A stretch of 20,497 nucleotides of DNA from an uncultured Eubacteriales bacterium (GCA_964475435.1 CAYYWT010000015.1:1-20497); one strand, 5' to 3'. Shown: positions 14,246 to 20,497, counted from the stretch's first letter. Notes: generated by a model from the letters alone, not told the origin. Numbers and translations: made by a program.

Positions 14246-14971
14246 TCACTTTACAAAGGGCATAATATCAAAAAAACTATTCATATCAGTAAATTTCTGA
14301 TAGTACAAATGCTGTGTTGAAAGAGAAATATCAAAGTGAAATTTATTTAAATAATTAATCATTTTTTCAATTCCATCTAACTTTTCTCTATTCACTTCAT
14401 CTCTCCTATAATACGCTAACGTAATATGTGGAGTAAATTGATATGGTAACGGCTTAATGCTATCAACAAGCATGTATAACTGCATAAGTTTGTCATAATC
14501 AGTTTTAGACTTAGGAATTAAACCAAGAACCAAACTTGTATTTACCATATTAAACACACATGTTGTTTCCATATCAATATTTTCAACATTATATTTATTT
14601 CCTTTAAGTTTTTCTGCCAAAACAATCTCTGTTTCAAACATTTTTTCCATTATTTCGTAACTGTTATAATTCATTGCATTCAAATCATGCAGAGTCATAT
14701 GAATGGTTTGCTTAGAAAACTTCCATGCAAAACAATCTCCGGCTATTCCGTACAAAGGATCAATATATTGGGATTTAATCAATTCTTTCTGCGAATCTTG
14801 TAAGTTAAATACTACAGTATCTCCGATAAAACGACAAAAAGTACCGTCAGTATTCACTTTTCCTTTAACAGATTCACTCGGGACAAGACTTTCCATTCCA
14901 AAACAAAATTCAGGCTTCTCAAACGAATAAATTCGATTTTTAAAAGTGGTATAATCCTCATAATAGCTCAT
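14246..14971 (-). CDS. 2H phosphoesterase superfamily protein (LigT / cyclic phosphodiesterase-like)
   Basis: Two H-x-T-L motifs are spaced about 90 aa apart: TIHMTLHD (H99/T101) and TPHITLAY (H190/T192), in ORF-track numbering. The ORF-track start at 14995 is TTG. The ATG at 14971 (MSYYEDY...) has AGGAGG 7 nt upstream. Confidence 0.8.
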   Translation of the reverse strand: MSYYEDYTTFKNRIYSFEKPEFCFGMESLVPSESVKGKVNTDGTFCRFIGDTVVFNLQDSQKELIKSQYIDPLYGIAGDCFAWKFSKQTIHMTLHDLNAMNYNSYEIMEKMFETEIVLAEKLKGNKYNVENIDMETTCVFNMVNTSLVLGLIPKSKTDYDKLMQLYMLVDSIKPLPYQFTPHITLAYYRRDEVNREKLDGIEKMINYLNKFHFDISLSTQHLYYQKFTDMNSFFDIMPFVK

Positions 14972-15072
14972 ACAAAATCCTCCTGCTGTATCCAAAGATA
15001 AAAATAATTATCTTCTCGAGTCAAAAAACAACCTTCATTCTTTGCTAGGGCAAAAAAAAGCGTTTGTTTCAT
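14968..15072 (-). CDS. 34-aa upstream micro-ORF translationally coupled to the 2H phosphoesterase gene
   Basis: Not in the ORF track because it is too short. AGGAGG lies 10 nt upstream of the ATG (15072-15070). Translation: MKQTLFFALAKNEGCFLTREDNYFYLWIQQEDFV*. Its stop overlaps the downstream start as ATGA (14971-14968). Confidence 0.35.
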   Translation of the reverse strand: MKQTLFFALAKNEGCFLTREDNYFYLWIQQEDFV

Positions 15073-15222: not shown

Positions 15223-15257
15223 AAAATAGAGACTACATTCATTGCAGTCTCTATTTT
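15223..15257 (-). terminator. Terminator hairpin downstream of the KAP NTPase gene (symmetrical, could act in both directions)
   Basis: A perfect 12-bp stem, aaaatagagact / agtctctatttt, with an 11-nt loop. The U-run forms the 3' end of the stem. Confidence 0.65.
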
Positions 15258-15361
15258 GGCTCGTTTAGCACTTCCGTGTGCGAAAAATATGAGCTCTAAA
15301 TTTATAATTGTATTTTATGTTTGATTCTATGGTTATAATTTAACATAAACTAAATATAAAA

Positions 15362-18300
15362 TCAATAGTTTTTATATTTTTTTCTATCTTCCTCATTTAA
15401 CTCTTCATTATTAAATAATCTACTCATTTTATTATTCTTAATAAATTTAAATATTTTATTATTTATCTCTTCACTTGCTGAGGAATTAACAATATCAATT
15501 AACTTTTTGCCATATTGTTCTTTATAATTTCTATTTATTTTATATTTATTAGGTAATATATTCAACCATTCATAAAACTCTATTTCATAAAATTGGTTAT
15601 GTGTTAAAGAAATAATATTTTGCCATATCCAATCATAATCTCCTCCAAATTCAACCATGATTTTTAATAAATTAAAAATCTCTAAATTTTCAAATTCACT
15701 TAATGCTATTTCTTGAATTTCTTCTTTTTTTATATCTAAATTAGTAATGGCTAATCTTAATTTTTCCACATCATAAATATTCTTAGCTATTACTTTTACT
15801 AAAATTTTTCTTGAAAAATTCATTTTTTTAATCAAGTCAATACCATTTAGAAACTTATCATTGAATTCAGTAATCTTTTCTATATATTTTTCTAAATTTA
15901 AATAACTTTCCAAATTCAATATAGTACCTTGTAATTCATTATAATTGTTTTCATCTAGTATATCTAAAATTTTATCCGCTAAATTCTCAATTTTTTCTTC
16001 TTCTACTTCATCATCTGCAGATATAATTTCTAATACATCATAACTATCCTTTATATTTTTAATATTGTCATTTATATTGTTAACAATATTAGATTTTTCA
16101 TCAATATTTAGATTTTCCCATACAATTTTAGTCGCTGATATTCCTAAATTACAATAAGTTGAATTTGCAATTAAATTTTTTATTCTAGTTAAATATGTTG
16201 TTTTATCAGAATTTGATAATATTCCGTATCCTTTTCCTACAAGTTCTATGATCATAGAGTTCCAATATGTCTTGCCAGCAGAATAATAGTTATTAAAATC
16301 AGAGACAGCTTTATTTAAAACTTTTTCTATAAAATTAGGTATTCCTTCTTTTTCAATGATTCTTAAATAAATGTTAATAGCATTTTTTACTTTACTATCT
16401 GAAATACTTGTACTATACACTATTGATGATGAAATTTCTTTATTTAACTCTTTTAATTGTTCCTCATTATATGAATCAATAATTTCATATCCATAATTGT
16501 TTATTGTTTCATCATCTAATATTTCTTCAGAAATTTGTTTTGTAAGTGCAGGTAACAACTGTAATTTATTTTTTTCTTTTAATTCTTTGACAATATTTGG
16601 AATATATGTAATATTTTCTAGTAACTTTAATAGCTTATCATATTCTTCTTTATTTTCATCATTAATATCATAATTCAGTAATTCAAATATTTTAATAATA
16701 CTATCTTTTTGTTTCTCTATTACGTTATCATCTATATTAAGAAGTAGGGTATCTCCATCATTTGTATCAACTAATATATTTTTATTGTTTACATACTCTA
16801 ATACTTTAATCAAACTTTTTATAAGTGTCTCATTATTTATCCAATTTTTCATGGAATTAATTACTAATGATATATTGCCAGAATCTATTAATTCAAAAGA
16901 CTTGTTCTCGATAATATTAACTATACTATAATTTTCTAGCCCATTATCATATACATCTTTTGTCAGTTTACAATAATTTTCACTAGTTATATAGAATTTG
17001 AAACTAAATTTTTCTACATCTTCTAATTCTTCTATTATATCCTCTATATTTATATCTTCAAAATTATTATTAATAATTTTATCTATTTTTTCTTTAACCT
17101 GTTTTCTTATTACATCATCCCATTTGTAATCAGTATTTAACATGTATACTACTTTTTCAAATACTTCACTATTTTCTTGCATTTTTTCTTTTACAATTTT
17201 ATCAAGAATTTCATTACCTTTATCATAGATTATATGAAAATTGCTTAAATCGTAAGCTGAAAAATCTACAATTTTTTTATTTTCCCATAGCTTATCGATG
17301 TTATTTATTAAATCTTTTTTTATTTTATTAATAAAGTCATTATTCATATCACTTAATAGTGAAAATACTGTTTCTATTTCTTTGGCTGAATTATTTACAT
17401 TACCCAATTCATCTTCAATAACTATTTTGACTTTATCATATTCTTCATCGTTAGCTAGAGCTTCTTTTAAGTATTTTTTATTACCACTTTTCAATGCTGT
17501 TTTTATTTCTGTATATTTTTTATCTCCTATCCTTTTTCCTATTTTGCTTTGAGTTAAATATATATATGTTTCAATATTATCCACTTTTATATTTGATGTA
17601 TAACTTAAAAAATTAGCTAATGAAAGCCATTTTTTATTTAAATTACCTGTAGCATCAAAAAATGATTTTAAATTTTCTTTTATATTCTGTGTTTTATCTA
17701 CTTCGTTATATATTTGAAGGAAATCCTCGATCAAATTAAAATCTTCTATTAGTAGTTTATAAAAATCATTAAAATCCGATTGTAATACTGATATTTTTGC
17801 AACCATCATTTTACATTCATAAGACTCCACTTGCATTTTATCTATTACTTTATCTTTTCTATTTTCTAATATTAAAATATTATTCATAAATGTATTAATT
17901 ATCTTTTTTACTTGTCTAGGAGTTTTCACATCTGGATAAATTAAAATATTCATAATATCTTTATAATTGTTTTTGCATATTTCTAGGATTCCTGGAGCCT
18001 CTTCTGCTATTATAACCTCTGAATATTGTTTTAAATCATATTCTGGCAATGGTGGCATATATATTTTAAATTGAAATAGTTTATCTAAGAAAAGTTCTCC
18101 TTCTACTACATAACTTTCATTTAATTTAATTTTATTATCTACTAATGCTTTTCTAAGAATATCATCATCAAAGGGTACAATAAAAATTATATTTTTTAGT
18201 TCTGTAAATGCTTTTATTGCATCTAATGCTTCTACAATTTTTTCTGGACTTAATCTATCCAAATCATCTATAACAACAATCTCTTTATATTTAATTTTCT

Positions 18301-18997
18301 TTAAATGTTCTTTTAATAAATCTTCATATTGATCAACATCTCTTATTGGATTGTTTATTGTAGTTATCTTATTGCCAGTCTTAAAGTTTATTTCAATATA
18401 TTTCTCGAATATTGCTATAAGTACTGAAACTACTGTTGTAACACTTAATAGTTTATTCATTACATATGTCCAAGTTGAAACATAACCTTCTTGTTTAAAA
18501 AATGAATAAATCCCTATTAATATTGATAAAACAAGTACTATAAATGCTAATATAATAAATGCTTTTGTCAGAATTCTTATTGTTTCTATAAACATATCTT
18601 TTAGTTGATTTAATAAGCTATTCTGTTCTTCTTTTTCTTTCATTGTTGTAGAAGATTTTTGTTTTAAATCCTCTACTGCCTTGGTCTGTTCATTTCTATC
18701 TAACGAAATAAATAATTGCTTAGTTAATGCTCTTCTTAATGCTTCTTTTTCGTATTTCCAAGCATTTATTTCATGAAATTTATATTTTTTAGGATCTTTT
18801 AATTTTCCTTTAACAATTTCAATTACACTTGATTTTCCAATTCCCCATTTTCCTATTATTGCTAAATTAAATGGAGTTTCTTCTGTTTCTATTACATTAA
18901 CTATATTTTCAGCAATATCTTTATGATTAAAAACATCTTTGTCAATACTATCTATTGCAACATCTTTAATGAAATATTTTTTCTGCATATCTTTCAT
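15362..18997 (-). CDS. KAP-family P-loop NTPase with an inserted transmembrane hairpin and a very long uncharacterised helical C-terminal region
   Basis: 1211 aa with ATG at 18997 and SD GGGAG. Motifs: Walker A IIGKWGIGKSS (aa 47-57), INAWKYE, hydrophobic helices at about aa 145-167 and 176-197 lying between the Walker motifs, and Walker B VVIDDLDRL (aa 241-249) followed by IFIVPFDD. From about aa 350 to 1211 I see no recognisable motif. The gene is extremely AT-rich. Confidence 0.88.
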   Translation of the reverse strand: MKDMQKKYFIKDVAIDSIDKDVFNHKDIAENIVNVIETEETPFNLAIIGKWGIGKSSVIEIVKGKLKDPKKYKFHEINAWKYEKEALRRALTKQLFISLDRNEQTKAVEDLKQKSSTTMKEKEEQNSLLNQLKDMFIETIRILTKAFIILAFIVLVLSILIGIYSFFKQEGYVSTWTYVMNKLLSVTTVVSVLIAIFEKYIEINFKTGNKITTINNPIRDVDQYEDLLKEHLKKIKYKEIVVIDDLDRLSPEKIVEALDAIKAFTELKNIIFIVPFDDDILRKALVDNKIKLNESYVVEGELFLDKLFQFKIYMPPLPEYDLKQYSEVIIAEEAPGILEICKNNYKDIMNILIYPDVKTPRQVKKIINTFMNNILILENRKDKVIDKMQVESYECKMMVAKISVLQSDFNDFYKLLIEDFNLIEDFLQIYNEVDKTQNIKENLKSFFDATGNLNKKWLSLANFLSYTSNIKVDNIETYIYLTQSKIGKRIGDKKYTEIKTALKSGNKKYLKEALANDEEYDKVKIVIEDELGNVNNSAKEIETVFSLLSDMNNDFINKIKKDLINNIDKLWENKKIVDFSAYDLSNFHIIYDKGNEILDKIVKEKMQENSEVFEKVVYMLNTDYKWDDVIRKQVKEKIDKIINNNFEDINIEDIIEELEDVEKFSFKFYITSENYCKLTKDVYDNGLENYSIVNIIENKSFELIDSGNISLVINSMKNWINNETLIKSLIKVLEYVNNKNILVDTNDGDTLLLNIDDNVIEKQKDSIIKIFELLNYDINDENKEEYDKLLKLLENITYIPNIVKELKEKNKLQLLPALTKQISEEILDDETINNYGYEIIDSYNEEQLKELNKEISSSIVYSTSISDSKVKNAINIYLRIIEKEGIPNFIEKVLNKAVSDFNNYYSAGKTYWNSMIIELVGKGYGILSNSDKTTYLTRIKNLIANSTYCNLGISATKIVWENLNIDEKSNIVNNINDNIKNIKDSYDVLEIISADDEVEEEKIENLADKILDILDENNYNELQGTILNLESYLNLEKYIEKITEFNDKFLNGIDLIKKMNFSRKILVKVIAKNIYDVEKLRLAITNLDIKKEEIQEIALSEFENLEIFNLLKIMVEFGGDYDWIWQNIISLTHNQFYEIEFYEWLNILPNKYKINRNYKEQYGKKLIDIVNSSASEEINNKIFKFIKNNKMSRLFNNEELNEEDRKKYKNY

Positions 18998-19019
18998 CTT
19001 TACTCCCTTCCAAAATGCA

Positions 19020-19052
19020 ACAAAAGTAGAACCTTTTTAATTCTACTTTTGT
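19020..19052 (-). terminator. Hairpin between the R gene and the KAP gene (weak or partial terminator, or processing site)
   Basis: A perfect 12-bp stem, acaaaagtagaa / ttctacttttgt, with a 9-nt loop. On the minus strand it is followed by UGCAUUUUGG, an interrupted U tract, so read-through is plausible. Confidence 0.4.
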
Positions 19053-19068
19053 CTTTTGTAATAAAATA

Positions 19069-19812
19069 TTAATTTACATTAAATAATTCAGTTGGATCTA
19101 CCTTGAATTGTAACATTTTTGCAGTATCTCTTCCAGCATCTCCACCTTTTCTTTGCATTGTAATTCTTCCTATTTTCATGCTACCTCTATTAGTTATTTC
19201 CACATTTCCTTCACTATAATGATTTATAGCTACGTTTATAGGCTTTAATGTCCATATTGATTCAGTTGCTGTTTTCTTAGCAACTAGTATCCATTCTGCT
19301 GCTAAAATCCCTCTACCTTTTACAATGTCTAGTATTATGAGTGCTTTATTATCTTCAAAAAATTTTACTAATTGATTTTGTTCATCTTCTGTAAATTCAT
19401 TCATAAACATTCTTCTTGAATCTTTAGTATCTTTCCTATATGGTAGAATTTCTCCTGTGAAATATTGTAATAGTTTTACAATATTTTCTGGGATATCCCA
19501 CATTTCCTTATAATTTCTAATCCATCTTTTATCTATTTGATTAAATCCCTTATCATTACTTACTAACTTAATTTGGAGATTTTGAGCTTCAATTATTTTT
19601 TTCAATTTTATAGTTACTTGAACTTGTACATCTGTTTTATATCCATGTATTACTTCTGCATATACATATTCAATTTCTTTTAAATCATATCCCATCGTTT
19701 TAAGCCAAGATTTAGCCTCATCGTCATTTTCCCAATTGATAAATTTGTTAGCTATATCTTTTTCATTATTAAAACCATCCTTTGCTATTTTTGAACCGCC
19801 TGAACTATCCAT
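19069..19812 (-). CDS. Type II restriction endonuclease, HinP1I/MspI-like fold (predicted GCGC specificity)
   Basis: 247 aa. The N-terminus GSKIAKDGFNNEKDIANKF... and the blocks GFNQIDKRW, FTGE, RRMFMNEF, AAEW and RKGGDAGRDTAKMLQFKVDPTELF match my memory of R.HinP1I. The candidate catalytic set E17, D61-x18-Q80-x-K82 has the same spacing as the HinP1I D-x18-Q-x-K. The start overlaps the MTase stop by 8 nt (ATGGATAG). Confidence 0.8.
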   Translation of the reverse strand: MDSSGGSKIAKDGFNNEKDIANKFINWENDDEAKSWLKTMGYDLKEIEYVYAEVIHGYKTDVQVQVTIKLKKIIEAQNLQIKLVSNDKGFNQIDKRWIRNYKEMWDIPENIVKLLQYFTGEILPYRKDTKDSRRMFMNEFTEDEQNQLVKFFEDNKALIILDIVKGRGILAAEWILVAKKTATESIWTLKPINVAINHYSEGNVEITNRGSMKIGRITMQRKGGDAGRDTAKMLQFKVDPTELFNVN

Positions 19813-20497
19813 TATTTACACTCCCTTCATCAATTATGCTTTTAACTATATATTGTAAAACATTAACCACTACACTATTTCCAAATTGCTTTTGAGCTTG
19901 ATTAACAGATTCGTCTATTTGATAATATTCTGGAAATCCCATTAATCTTGCACATTCTCTTGGATGTAGCTTTCTAACCTCATTGTTTATATAGTATAAA
20001 CCAGTTTTGGCTCCTGTTCCTCCACCTTCTGCTGACAAAGTAATTGCTTGTCCAAATGGATCGTATATTCTGTCTCCTTGTCCTCCTTTATTAACAGTTC
20101 CAACTCTTACTGGTTTATTATATACCTTAAACATTTTTATCTGATTATTATCTTCATTCATTTTATATTGTTTATTTATAATATATTTTCTTTCTTCTCC
20201 ATTAGTTAGCAATATATCATTAACACAAACTTCTTGATTCGTAGATTTTGGGAATATGTAATTATGATTATCTAAATCTTTTCTTATACATACCATATAA
20301 ATTCTCTCTCTTGCTTGTGGAACACCATAATTTGAAGCATTTAGGACCTTCCAATACATGTTATATCCTATATTTTCAATATTTTCTCTTATAACTCTAA
20401 AAGTATTTCCATTATCATGTTTTTCTAAATTCTTTACATTTTCCAATATTAATAATTCTGGTTGATGAAACTTAGCAATTCTAACCACTTCTCTAAA
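19805..20497 (-). CDS. DNA (cytosine-5)-methyltransferase, M.HhaI-like, C-terminal 230 aa (5' end off-window)
   Basis: The frame is open to the window edge; the GTG start in the track is an artefact. Present: motif VI ENVKNL, motif VIII QARERIYMV, an HhaI-type target-recognition domain (NKGGQGDRIY...AITLSAEGGGTGAKTG), motif IX RKLHPRECARLMGFP and motif X QFGNSVVVNV. Motifs I-IV lie beyond the window. Confidence 0.93.
   Translation of the reverse strand, partial: FREVVRIAKFHQPELLILENVKNLEKHDNGNTFRVIRENIENIGYNMYWKVLNASNYGVPQARERIYMVCIRKDLDNHNYIFPKSTNQEVCVNDILLTNGEERKYIINKQYKMNEDNNQIKMFKVYNKPVRVGTVNKGGQGDRIYDPFGQAITLSAEGGGTGAKTGLYYINNEVRKLHPRECARLMGFPEYYQIDESVNQAQKQFGNSVVVNVLQYIVKSIIDEGSVNNG

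Follow-up and report, generated by a model that had tools for sequence, protein, structure and literature searches.

A large open reading frame (ORF) lies at positions 15362 to 18997, on the minus strand, of a 20,497-nucleotide stretch of DNA from an uncultured Eubacteriales bacterium (GCA_964475435.1 CAYYWT010000015.1:1-20497), referred to here in its full length as the window. From an ATG start, it encodes a protein of 1,211 residues that joins a membrane-anchored P-loop NTPase of the KAP family to a C-terminal tail predicted to be an alpha-solenoid. Among the candidates scored, 361 homologues of this KAP protein were found at E<=1e-3, and one sequence, P0001, is 100% identical to it. The gene follows directly on the two genes of a type II restriction-modification (R-M) pair, a methyltransferase (M) and an endonuclease (R). 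The original prediction for this locus had proposed a membrane NTPase with a helical sensor that may serve in defence.

The window protein is a member of the KAP family by all tests run. The Pfam model PF07693 (KAP_NTPase) matches it over profile positions 3-287 of 293 with an E-value of 3.2e-34 and a score of 119 bits, for which the cut-off is 20, and this match, together with an hhalign alignment to a plasmid PifA-like protein, places the domain at residues 27-371 (17885-18919). The same model matches all 63 of the relatives sampled, 36 of them from a full-length search and 27 more distant ones from a search with a profile of the C-terminus. The KAP signature first recognised in the sequence is exact in the translation, with Walker A (GKWGIGKS) at residues 49-56 (18830-18853), INAWKYE at residues 77-83 and Walker B (VVIDDLDR) at residues 241-248 (18254-18277). 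Both Walker motifs are intact, and in an alignment of 113 family members G49, W51, G52, G54, K55 and S57 of the Walker A region and D244, D245, D247 and R248 of Walker B are invariant. An NTPase module of the STAND/Avs kind (NACHT, NB-ARC or STAND type) was not found with Pfam, which returned only sub-threshold AAA_16 and AAA_22 matches over Walker A and no effector domain. The KAP family of P-loop NTPases is reportedly the one described by Aravind et al. in 2004.

As membership in the family also entails, transmembrane segments lie inside the NTPase domain. They form a hairpin of two helices, at about residues 143-167 and 178-199 (18407-18571), between Walker A and Walker B. Windows of 19 residues with a Kyte-Doolittle hydropathy above 1.6 occur in the protein only near residues 144-161 and 187-192, and an AlphaFold2 (AF2) model places long helices at residues 128-168 and 172-204, with loops of low confidence on either side. 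The hairpin that had been proposed inside the P-loop domain is thus borne out by hydropathy and by the model. Because the loop between the two helices is short, both halves of the NTPase engine and the whole of the tail would be cytoplasmic.

The tail has no recognisable enzymatic effector. No model of Pfam, PADLOC, NCBIfam or PHROGs matches residues 372-1211, in agreement with the earlier description of this region as helical and devoid of effector motifs. The AF2 model, which covers residues 1-1200 and was built from the family alignment of 113 sequences, has a mean predicted local distance difference test score (pLDDT) of 79.9, mostly 80-92 in the tail, and a predicted template modelling score (pTM) of 0.45. 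From about residue 390 onward the modelled protein is all-helical, with dozens of helices of 8-20 residues. When this model was compared with the Protein Data Bank (PDB) by Foldseek, 73 matches were obtained at E<=1e-3, and all 50 of the 50 matches listed are HEAT/ARM solenoids, among them Utp10/Utp20, the condensin subunit Ycg1, CAND1, transportins, SF3B1, Pds5 and AP2. The corresponding template modelling scores (TM-scores) are 0.04-0.31, and such low values are expected because solenoids are flexible. A sequence search of the PDB with the single KAP sequence found nothing at E<=1, and the family profile gave marginal matches (~1e-3) to the HEAT region of EF3 and to designed helical repeats. 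Internal sequence repeats were not detected in the tail when six segments were aligned against each other with hhalign (probabilities <=13%). Overall, the C-terminus is confidently predicted to be an all-alpha, HEAT/ARM-like solenoid.

Selection acts unevenly along the protein. Divergence was analyzed across four lineages of the module formed by M, R and the KAP gene, namely that of the window and three related ones with ~95%, 85% and 82% identity to it in module DNA. The overall ratio of nonsynonymous to synonymous substitution rates (dN/dS) of the KAP gene, measured against its orthologues, is ~0.2, and the gene is therefore functional. Given this ratio, a length of 3.6 kb in DNA of 22% GC and hundreds of full-length homologues, the ORF is not a product of chance. 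The NTPase core (residues 1-130 and 206-520) has a dN/dS of 0.06-0.16 and is under strong purifying selection. At its C-terminal end is a conserved helical region (residues 372-520; 17438-17884) in which invariant or near-invariant residues continue to about residue 506, with a dN/dS of 0.08-0.11 over residues 401-520. The solenoid (residues 521-1211; 15365-17437), whose extent follows from the AF2 model, Foldseek, the family profile and dN/dS, evolves 2-4 times faster than the core, at 0.22-0.46, and the transmembrane region shows values of 0.13-0.40. A slow engine joined to a fast tail fits the pattern expected for a sensor that binds a trigger, and the solenoid is the putative site of such binding.

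This architecture agrees with the published description of Tmn, the "transmembrane NTPase" of Gao et al. (2020), whose mechanism was reported by Wu et al. (2026; bioRxiv 10.64898/2026.03.01.708804) and which an earlier paper of the same group termed a KAP NTPase. Tmn is a protein of about 1,270 residues with two transmembrane helices inside its P-loop domain; its tail, variable and helical, was modelled as a solenoid of the ARM/HEAT type (Wu et al., 2026). It assembles into a membrane decamer whose arms bind the RIIB protein of phage T2; ATP turnover then rises, Mg2+ is exported, and the output consists of Mg2+ export, ATP collapse and plasmolysis (Wu et al., 2026). The action of Tmn can be reversible, and it synergises with PrrC, Gabija and Septu. 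The window protein, at 1,211 residues, is likewise a single large polypeptide with two transmembrane helices between Walker A and Walker B, a conserved core and a variable all-helical, ARM/HEAT-like tail. Sequence-level internal repeats are absent from both, and the D..R context of Walker B is shared, with D276/R279 in Tmn corresponding to D245/R248 in the window protein. Both also have no conserved operon and are frequently carried on mobile elements. A difference from Tmn is the tight linkage of the window gene, in its lineage, with a type II R-M pair.

A second precedent is provided by KAP NTPases with fused C-terminal regions of unknown nature; these proteins protect Enterococcus faecalis from phage (PLoS Biol 2026, PMC13552941). 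Protection by these proteins requires both Walker B and the C-terminal region, and the protein EF_KAP was reported to be non-abortive (PMC13552941). As in EF_KAP and three proteins from gut metagenomes (PMC13552941), the window protein combines a KAP_NTPase domain, membrane helices and an uncharacterised C-terminal region, and it shares with that set a Firmicute or gut origin and a place in islands marked by recombinases. The essential Walker B aspartates of EF_KAP, D246 and D247, have their equivalents in D244 and D245. In contrast, EF_KAP, compared here by description only, has a tail of 322 residues and another transmembrane layout, with one helix at the N-terminus of the protein and one internal, while the window protein has a tail of about 840 residues, of which about 690 are solenoid. 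The original prediction had held that no mechanism was characterised for this architecture, a statement now outdated by the work on Tmn (bioRxiv 10.64898/2026.03.01.708804) and on the KAP proteins (PMC13552941). It had also counted a named system of exactly this architecture as grounds against it; Tmn is such a system in architecture but not in membership of the sequence family.

Other known systems share only the NTPase domain with the window protein. PifA, which excludes phage T7 from cells carrying the F plasmid, has a homologous KAP NTPase domain (PADLOC PifA, E=1e-27) and is, like the window protein, encoded on a mobile element. Alignment to a 741-residue plasmid PifA-like protein by hhalign gave a probability of 97.7% at 19% identity. 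The match is confined to residues 12-371, and PifA is a protein of ~740 residues, reported to be without transmembrane helices, with an unrelated C-terminus. The best stretch of the PifA profile is positions 147-312 of 720, with no full-length match. A tblastn search of plasmids with the N-terminal domain likewise found PifA-like proteins of 741 residues and not Tmn, and the weak matches in metagenomes are to short, generic KAP proteins of 185-1,080 residues. QatA, of the QatABCD system, also carries a KAP-type NTPase domain (PADLOC E=1e-17; NCBIfam NF041923 E=9.5e-20), but the score of 70.8 bits compares with an equivalog cut-off of 600, and QatB, QatC and QatD are not among the neighbouring genes. 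The window protein was accordingly rejected as an orthologue of PifA or QatA, both matches being restricted to the domain and that to QatA falling far below the equivalog cut-off. The PADLOC candidate models PDC-S20 match 41 of the 63 sampled family members, with best E-values of 5e-17 and 1.6e-19, so the wider family has already been flagged as a single-gene defence candidate. These models, of 464 positions, align to the N-terminal domain only, and the window protein itself has no PDC-S20 match at E<=0.1. No mention of PDC-S20 was found in the literature searched.

The wider family was delimited by searching 1.84 billion representative proteins with a profile of the C-terminal 810 residues. 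At E<=1e-3 this search returned only 170 clusters, formed at 50% identity, of which 116 remain at E<=1e-10. In nearly all of the full-length matches (1,197-1,358 residues) the matching part begins near residue 390-460, and the family is accordingly compact and of one uniform architecture. Its distribution is patchy, mostly in Firmicutes and gut metagenomes, and named members come from Bacillus, Priestia, Fictibacillus, Cohnella, Enterococcus and gut metagenome-assembled genomes of Clostridia and Bacilli. Relatives at <=37% identity do not carry the HinP1I-type R-M module of the window; one of them adjoins a tyrosine integrase, and further relatives adjoin integrase remnants and YolD. In the 12 lineages examined, R-M genes are neighbours in four, including two other lineages that adjoin type I systems, an Mrr-nSTAND3 gene in one and Schlafen-helicase, UvrD and NUDIX genes in one, while integrase, Tn7 or Mob markers lie near roughly nine. 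Another 22 metagenomic loci, dereplicated, supplied 74 immediately adjacent genes, among which are matches to type I and type II R-M, AriA, AbiL, HEC-01, NsnB and several PDC models, with no single recurring partner. These observations uphold the expectation that relatives would occur in mobile or defence-type neighbourhoods, as counts over 12 lineages and 22 loci given without a background rate. Such variable neighbourhoods match a self-contained defence gene in variable islands.

Individual lineages have neighbours of their own. In the P0013 lineage (33% identity), a 602-residue ResIII/DEAD-like protein is encoded divergently beside the KAP gene in three of three contigs (L013:1043-2851, L014:515-2323, L015:1-1689), and it may be a lineage-specific partner. 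In the P0028 lineage (L020:6750-13771, L021:2654-9675), genes for a Zn-ribbon UvrD-like helicase (941 residues), a NUDIX protein (135 residues) and the KAP protein are co-oriented with operon-like gaps of 12 and 5 nucleotides, and a Schlafen-group-3 helicase lies just upstream. The Bacillus toyonensis member (L019:8661-23153) stands directly after smpB, and next to it come an Mrr_cat-nSTAND3 (Avs-like) gene and the Tn7-like genes TnsA/TniB/TniQ; its setting resembles that of cargo in a Tn7-like element at an smpB/tmRNA hotspot.

Based on these comparisons, the KAP protein is probably, at a rough probability of 0.6, a single-protein membrane sensor-effector of the Tmn/KAP type that defends against phages or mobile elements. 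By analogy with Tmn, the solenoid would bind a phage-encoded protein, productive binding would switch on NTP hydrolysis in a membrane-embedded oligomer, and the resulting perturbation of the membrane, of ions or of energy would arrest phage development. In the lineage of the window, the KAP protein would then add a second line of protection to that of the R-M pair. The closest profile matches of the N-terminal domain in PADLOC, PifA and QatA, are all defence proteins, which supports this reading. The combination of a helical sensor with a membrane NTPase, as first proposed, fits both the faster evolution of the tail and the experiments on Tmn, while trigger and output are drawn by analogy. The specific output of Mg2+ export and plasmolysis is considerably less probable for the KAP protein than the general role. 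Nor is abortive infection implied, since the action of Tmn can be reversed and that of EF_KAP is non-abortive.

Several observations weigh against this interpretation. The PADLOC Tmn model matches neither the window protein (E<=0.1) nor any of the 63 relatives (E<=1e-3), in a comparison without a bona fide Tmn as positive control, and the Pfam model YobI-ATPase (PF20693) also misses the window protein at E<=0.1. PF20693 does match 14 of the 63 relatives weakly (seven of 36, best 5.7e-13, and seven of 27, best 8.5e-10), far below their KAP_NTPase scores. The search with the C-terminal profile yielded only 170 clusters and did not reach Tmn, none of the 27 distant relatives sampled from it being one; the Tmn mechanism is thus carried over on grounds of architecture, not of demonstrated homology between the tails. 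Wu et al. (2026) defined Tmn operationally by a match to the PADLOC Tmn hidden Markov model with at least 50% coverage and E<1e-10, and on this definition the window protein would not be counted as Tmn. On the results with the Tmn and YobI-ATPase models, with Tmn represented by model and description, the window family is probably best placed as a sister family of Tmn. For the tail, the pTM of 0.45 and the TM-scores of 0.04-0.31 support the predicted fold class alone. The Cohnella lineage has no obvious mobile or defence context, and the neighbourhood counts stand without a background control. The defence role proposed for this family draws on computation and on precedent from elsewhere.

The R-M pair upstream of the KAP gene is of the HinP1I type. 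The R gene (19069-19812, minus strand) encodes a type II restriction endonuclease of the R.HinP1I family (PF11463, E=6e-87; PADLOC REase_II, E=3e-109). The M gene (19805-20497, minus strand) encodes an M.HinP1I-like C5 cytosine DNA methyltransferase (PF00145, E=5e-50). Only its 3' part is present, cut by the end of the window, and the match spans profile positions 95-323 only; the full gene, of 333 residues, is found in contigs L001-L011. The GC content of the KAP gene is 0.215-0.24, compared with 0.265-0.283 for the R-M genes and about 0.28-0.35 for most of the remaining window, in keeping with the AT-richness noticed at the outset. The HinP1I site, GCGC, was not seen in the island, where fewer than one is expected, and its avoidance is uninformative because of this low expectation.

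The intergenic region between R and the KAP gene (18998-19068, minus strand) is 71 nucleotides long and has the features ascribed to it originally. It holds a hairpin at 19019-19053 with a 15-bp stem (folding free energy, dG, -20.8 kcal/mol; z=-6.4), followed only by UUGCAUUUUGG, a poor U tract, and a Shine-Dalgarno sequence of the KAP gene, GGAAGGGAG, at 19003-19011. The hairpin is kept in lineages 82-86% identical to the window module. A promoter scan found no sigma-70-like site on the minus (coding) strand within this gap, and an independent KAP gene with a promoter of its own was considered and found to be unsupported on that ground.

The three genes are inherited together. Comparison of contigs reveals two nested units. 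The larger, of 8.47 kb, comprises Mob_Pre, orf102, TnpV, orf93, M, R and the KAP gene. The smaller is a 5.65-kb M-R-KAP module with sharp ends, from ~95 nucleotides upstream of M to ~105 nucleotides downstream of the KAP gene, which occurs in three contexts, two of them besides that of the window at 82-86% identity. The three genes are always present in contigs encoding P0003 (93% identical to the window protein), where a Mob_Pre relaxase gene, a TnpV-family gene and small ORFs lie 5' of the trio and a large serine recombinase gene, in two versions, lies just to the left. Synonymous divergence (dS) between lineages is 0.66-0.98 for M; for R it is 0.27 in the closest pair and otherwise 0.72-1.02, and for the KAP gene 0.12 in the closest pair and otherwise 0.52-0.73. 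Because these values are similar, M, R and the KAP gene are taken to have travelled together, as the original prediction of a link between the KAP gene and the R-M pair would have it.

This co-inheritance bears on the main rival explanation, namely that M, R and the KAP protein form one three-gene system in which the KAP protein guards the R-M pair and fires when an anti-restriction factor disables R. It could respond to the anti-restriction proteins of phages, in the manner of PrrC with EcoprrI, or couple the failure of restriction to a collapse of ATP or ions, or its depletion of ATP could potentiate restriction. The sharp-ended module in its three genomic contexts, the similar dS of its genes and the promoterless gap with its conserved hairpin all favour such a system, as do the two other lineages that adjoin type I R-M genes and the synergy of Tmn with PrrC, Gabija and Septu. 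Nevertheless, a guard of this kind is unlikely: R-M genes are not adjacent in most relatives, Tmn and EF_KAP act as single genes, and hitch-hiking of cargo alone could explain the co-inheritance. Moreover, a HinP1I-like M-R pair exists without the KAP gene on Spiroplasma plasmids. A tblastn search of phage genomes gave no match, and on plasmids DNA-level matches were obtained for the M and R genes only, in Spiroplasma and Clostridium. On the Spiroplasma citri plasmid pSciBLHMB-2 (L111:4638-8252) the pair, at ~66% DNA identity, adjoins a gene for a type IV secretion coupling protein, and the protein encoded downstream of it (460 residues, genetic code 4) is unrelated to KAP.

The KAP gene is the last gene, the terminal cargo, of a mobile element in an otherwise ordinary chromosomal region. 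This position follows from the sharp junction shared among contigs, the nested units and the co-divergence of the trio. It was also considered whether the KAP protein mainly serves the mobilisable element itself, and not the immunity of the host as such, by excluding competing elements or phages that threaten it, in a way similar to PifA on the F plasmid, or by stabilising the element. The place of the gene at the end of the 8.47-kb unit with its Mob_Pre relaxase and TnpV, next to serine recombinase genes on the left, is as expected for such a role, and so are the homology of the N-terminal domain to PifA (97.7% by hhalign) and the relatives found beside integrases and Tn7-like genes. The likeness to PifA is limited to the NTPase domain, however, and no partner resembling a toxin-antitoxin component was found. 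The proposal also overlaps with that of a Tmn/KAP-type defence protein, since defence cargo benefits its element too, and as a distinct explanation it is decidedly improbable. A non-defence membrane scaffold or transport ATPase with a housekeeping or niche function is very improbable, for although alpha-solenoids are generic protein-protein scaffolds and in one lineage the neighbours are neither mobile nor defence genes, the distribution of the family is patchy, the gene is located on a mobile element with a GC content 6-10 points under the host flank, the tail evolves fast, defence-type neighbours are common and each of the closest profile matches is to a defence protein.

The mobile DNA has a sharply defined right end. 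The 3' untranslated tail of the module (15257-15361, minus strand) includes a hairpin at 15257-15294 (GCTCAT...ACGAGCCA), and the similarity of the window to 13 other contigs ends at 15254-15257 (...AAACGAGCCA), ~105 nucleotides past the KAP stop codon. Beyond this junction the flanks differ, with at least five unrelated flank sequences and one related group, and the genes called downstream differ in most contigs. On the host side, a terminator-like arrangement of A-tract, hairpin and T-tract (15223-15256, minus strand; dG -17.7) abuts the end of the element. An arrangement of this kind is present at the junction in nine of the ten flank variants listed, the window included (eight of the nine others), and four of them share one related hairpin. 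The apparent position of the element just upstream of host terminators suggests insertion directed by structure or by terminators. The terminator-like structures have a dG of -14 to -21 kcal/mol (L001:13700-13800, with equivalents in L002-L010, L016 and L017), and the end of the element itself also folds as a hairpin (GCTCGT...ACGAGC).

At the other end, the serine recombinases to the left of an identical 8.47-kb unit have 553 and 647 residues (L001:3564-5225 and L003:497-2440), and the left boundary is sharp, at L001:5277. The recombinase modules may be exchangeable; alternatively, the 8.47-kb unit may insert beside recombinase genes. Contig L001 has a second Mob_Pre gene upstream and may hold a tandem array of elements. 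The host region around the element encodes an alcohol dehydrogenase, a MATE transporter, a MacAB-type efflux system and a TetR regulator. Just outside the end of the element, an ORF of 249 residues (14246-14995, minus strand) shows sub-threshold LigT/2H phosphoesterase matches (E about 0.006-0.09), which include the region of its second HxT-type motif, and has at 15158-15130 a site of its own that resembles a strong promoter (TTGACA-17-TATTAT). Roughly 3 kb past one of the insertion sites (L002:11245-13650), the host carries a defence-type STAND gene for a TIR_2-NB-ARC-TPR protein of 801 residues, and the insertion in L004 lies near a PhdYeFM/ParE toxin-antitoxin pair. Because of these neighbours, some of the insertion sites appear themselves to be in defence or variable regions.

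In conclusion, the KAP gene most likely represents a sequence-distinct family of a known kind of defence, in which a P-loop domain split by transmembrane helices is joined to a solenoid, and not a new kind of system. Understanding of single-protein defences that are integrated in the membrane is recent; the preprint on Tmn and the study of KAP defence proteins both date from 2026. The window family would add a second, sequence-distinct family with the same layout of a transmembrane-split P-loop and a fast-evolving solenoid, which scores as KAP_NTPase and not as YobI. Because current Tmn models miss it, defence annotation under-counts this family, some of which appears only under the candidate PDC-S20. 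Should the KAP protein after all guard its R-M partners, it would act as a "restriction guard" in the manner of PrrC, here made of a Tmn-like membrane protein and encoded in a portable 5.65-kb cassette. In either case, the compact M-R-KAP cassette is well suited to testing the cooperation of a Tmn-like protein with classical R-M.

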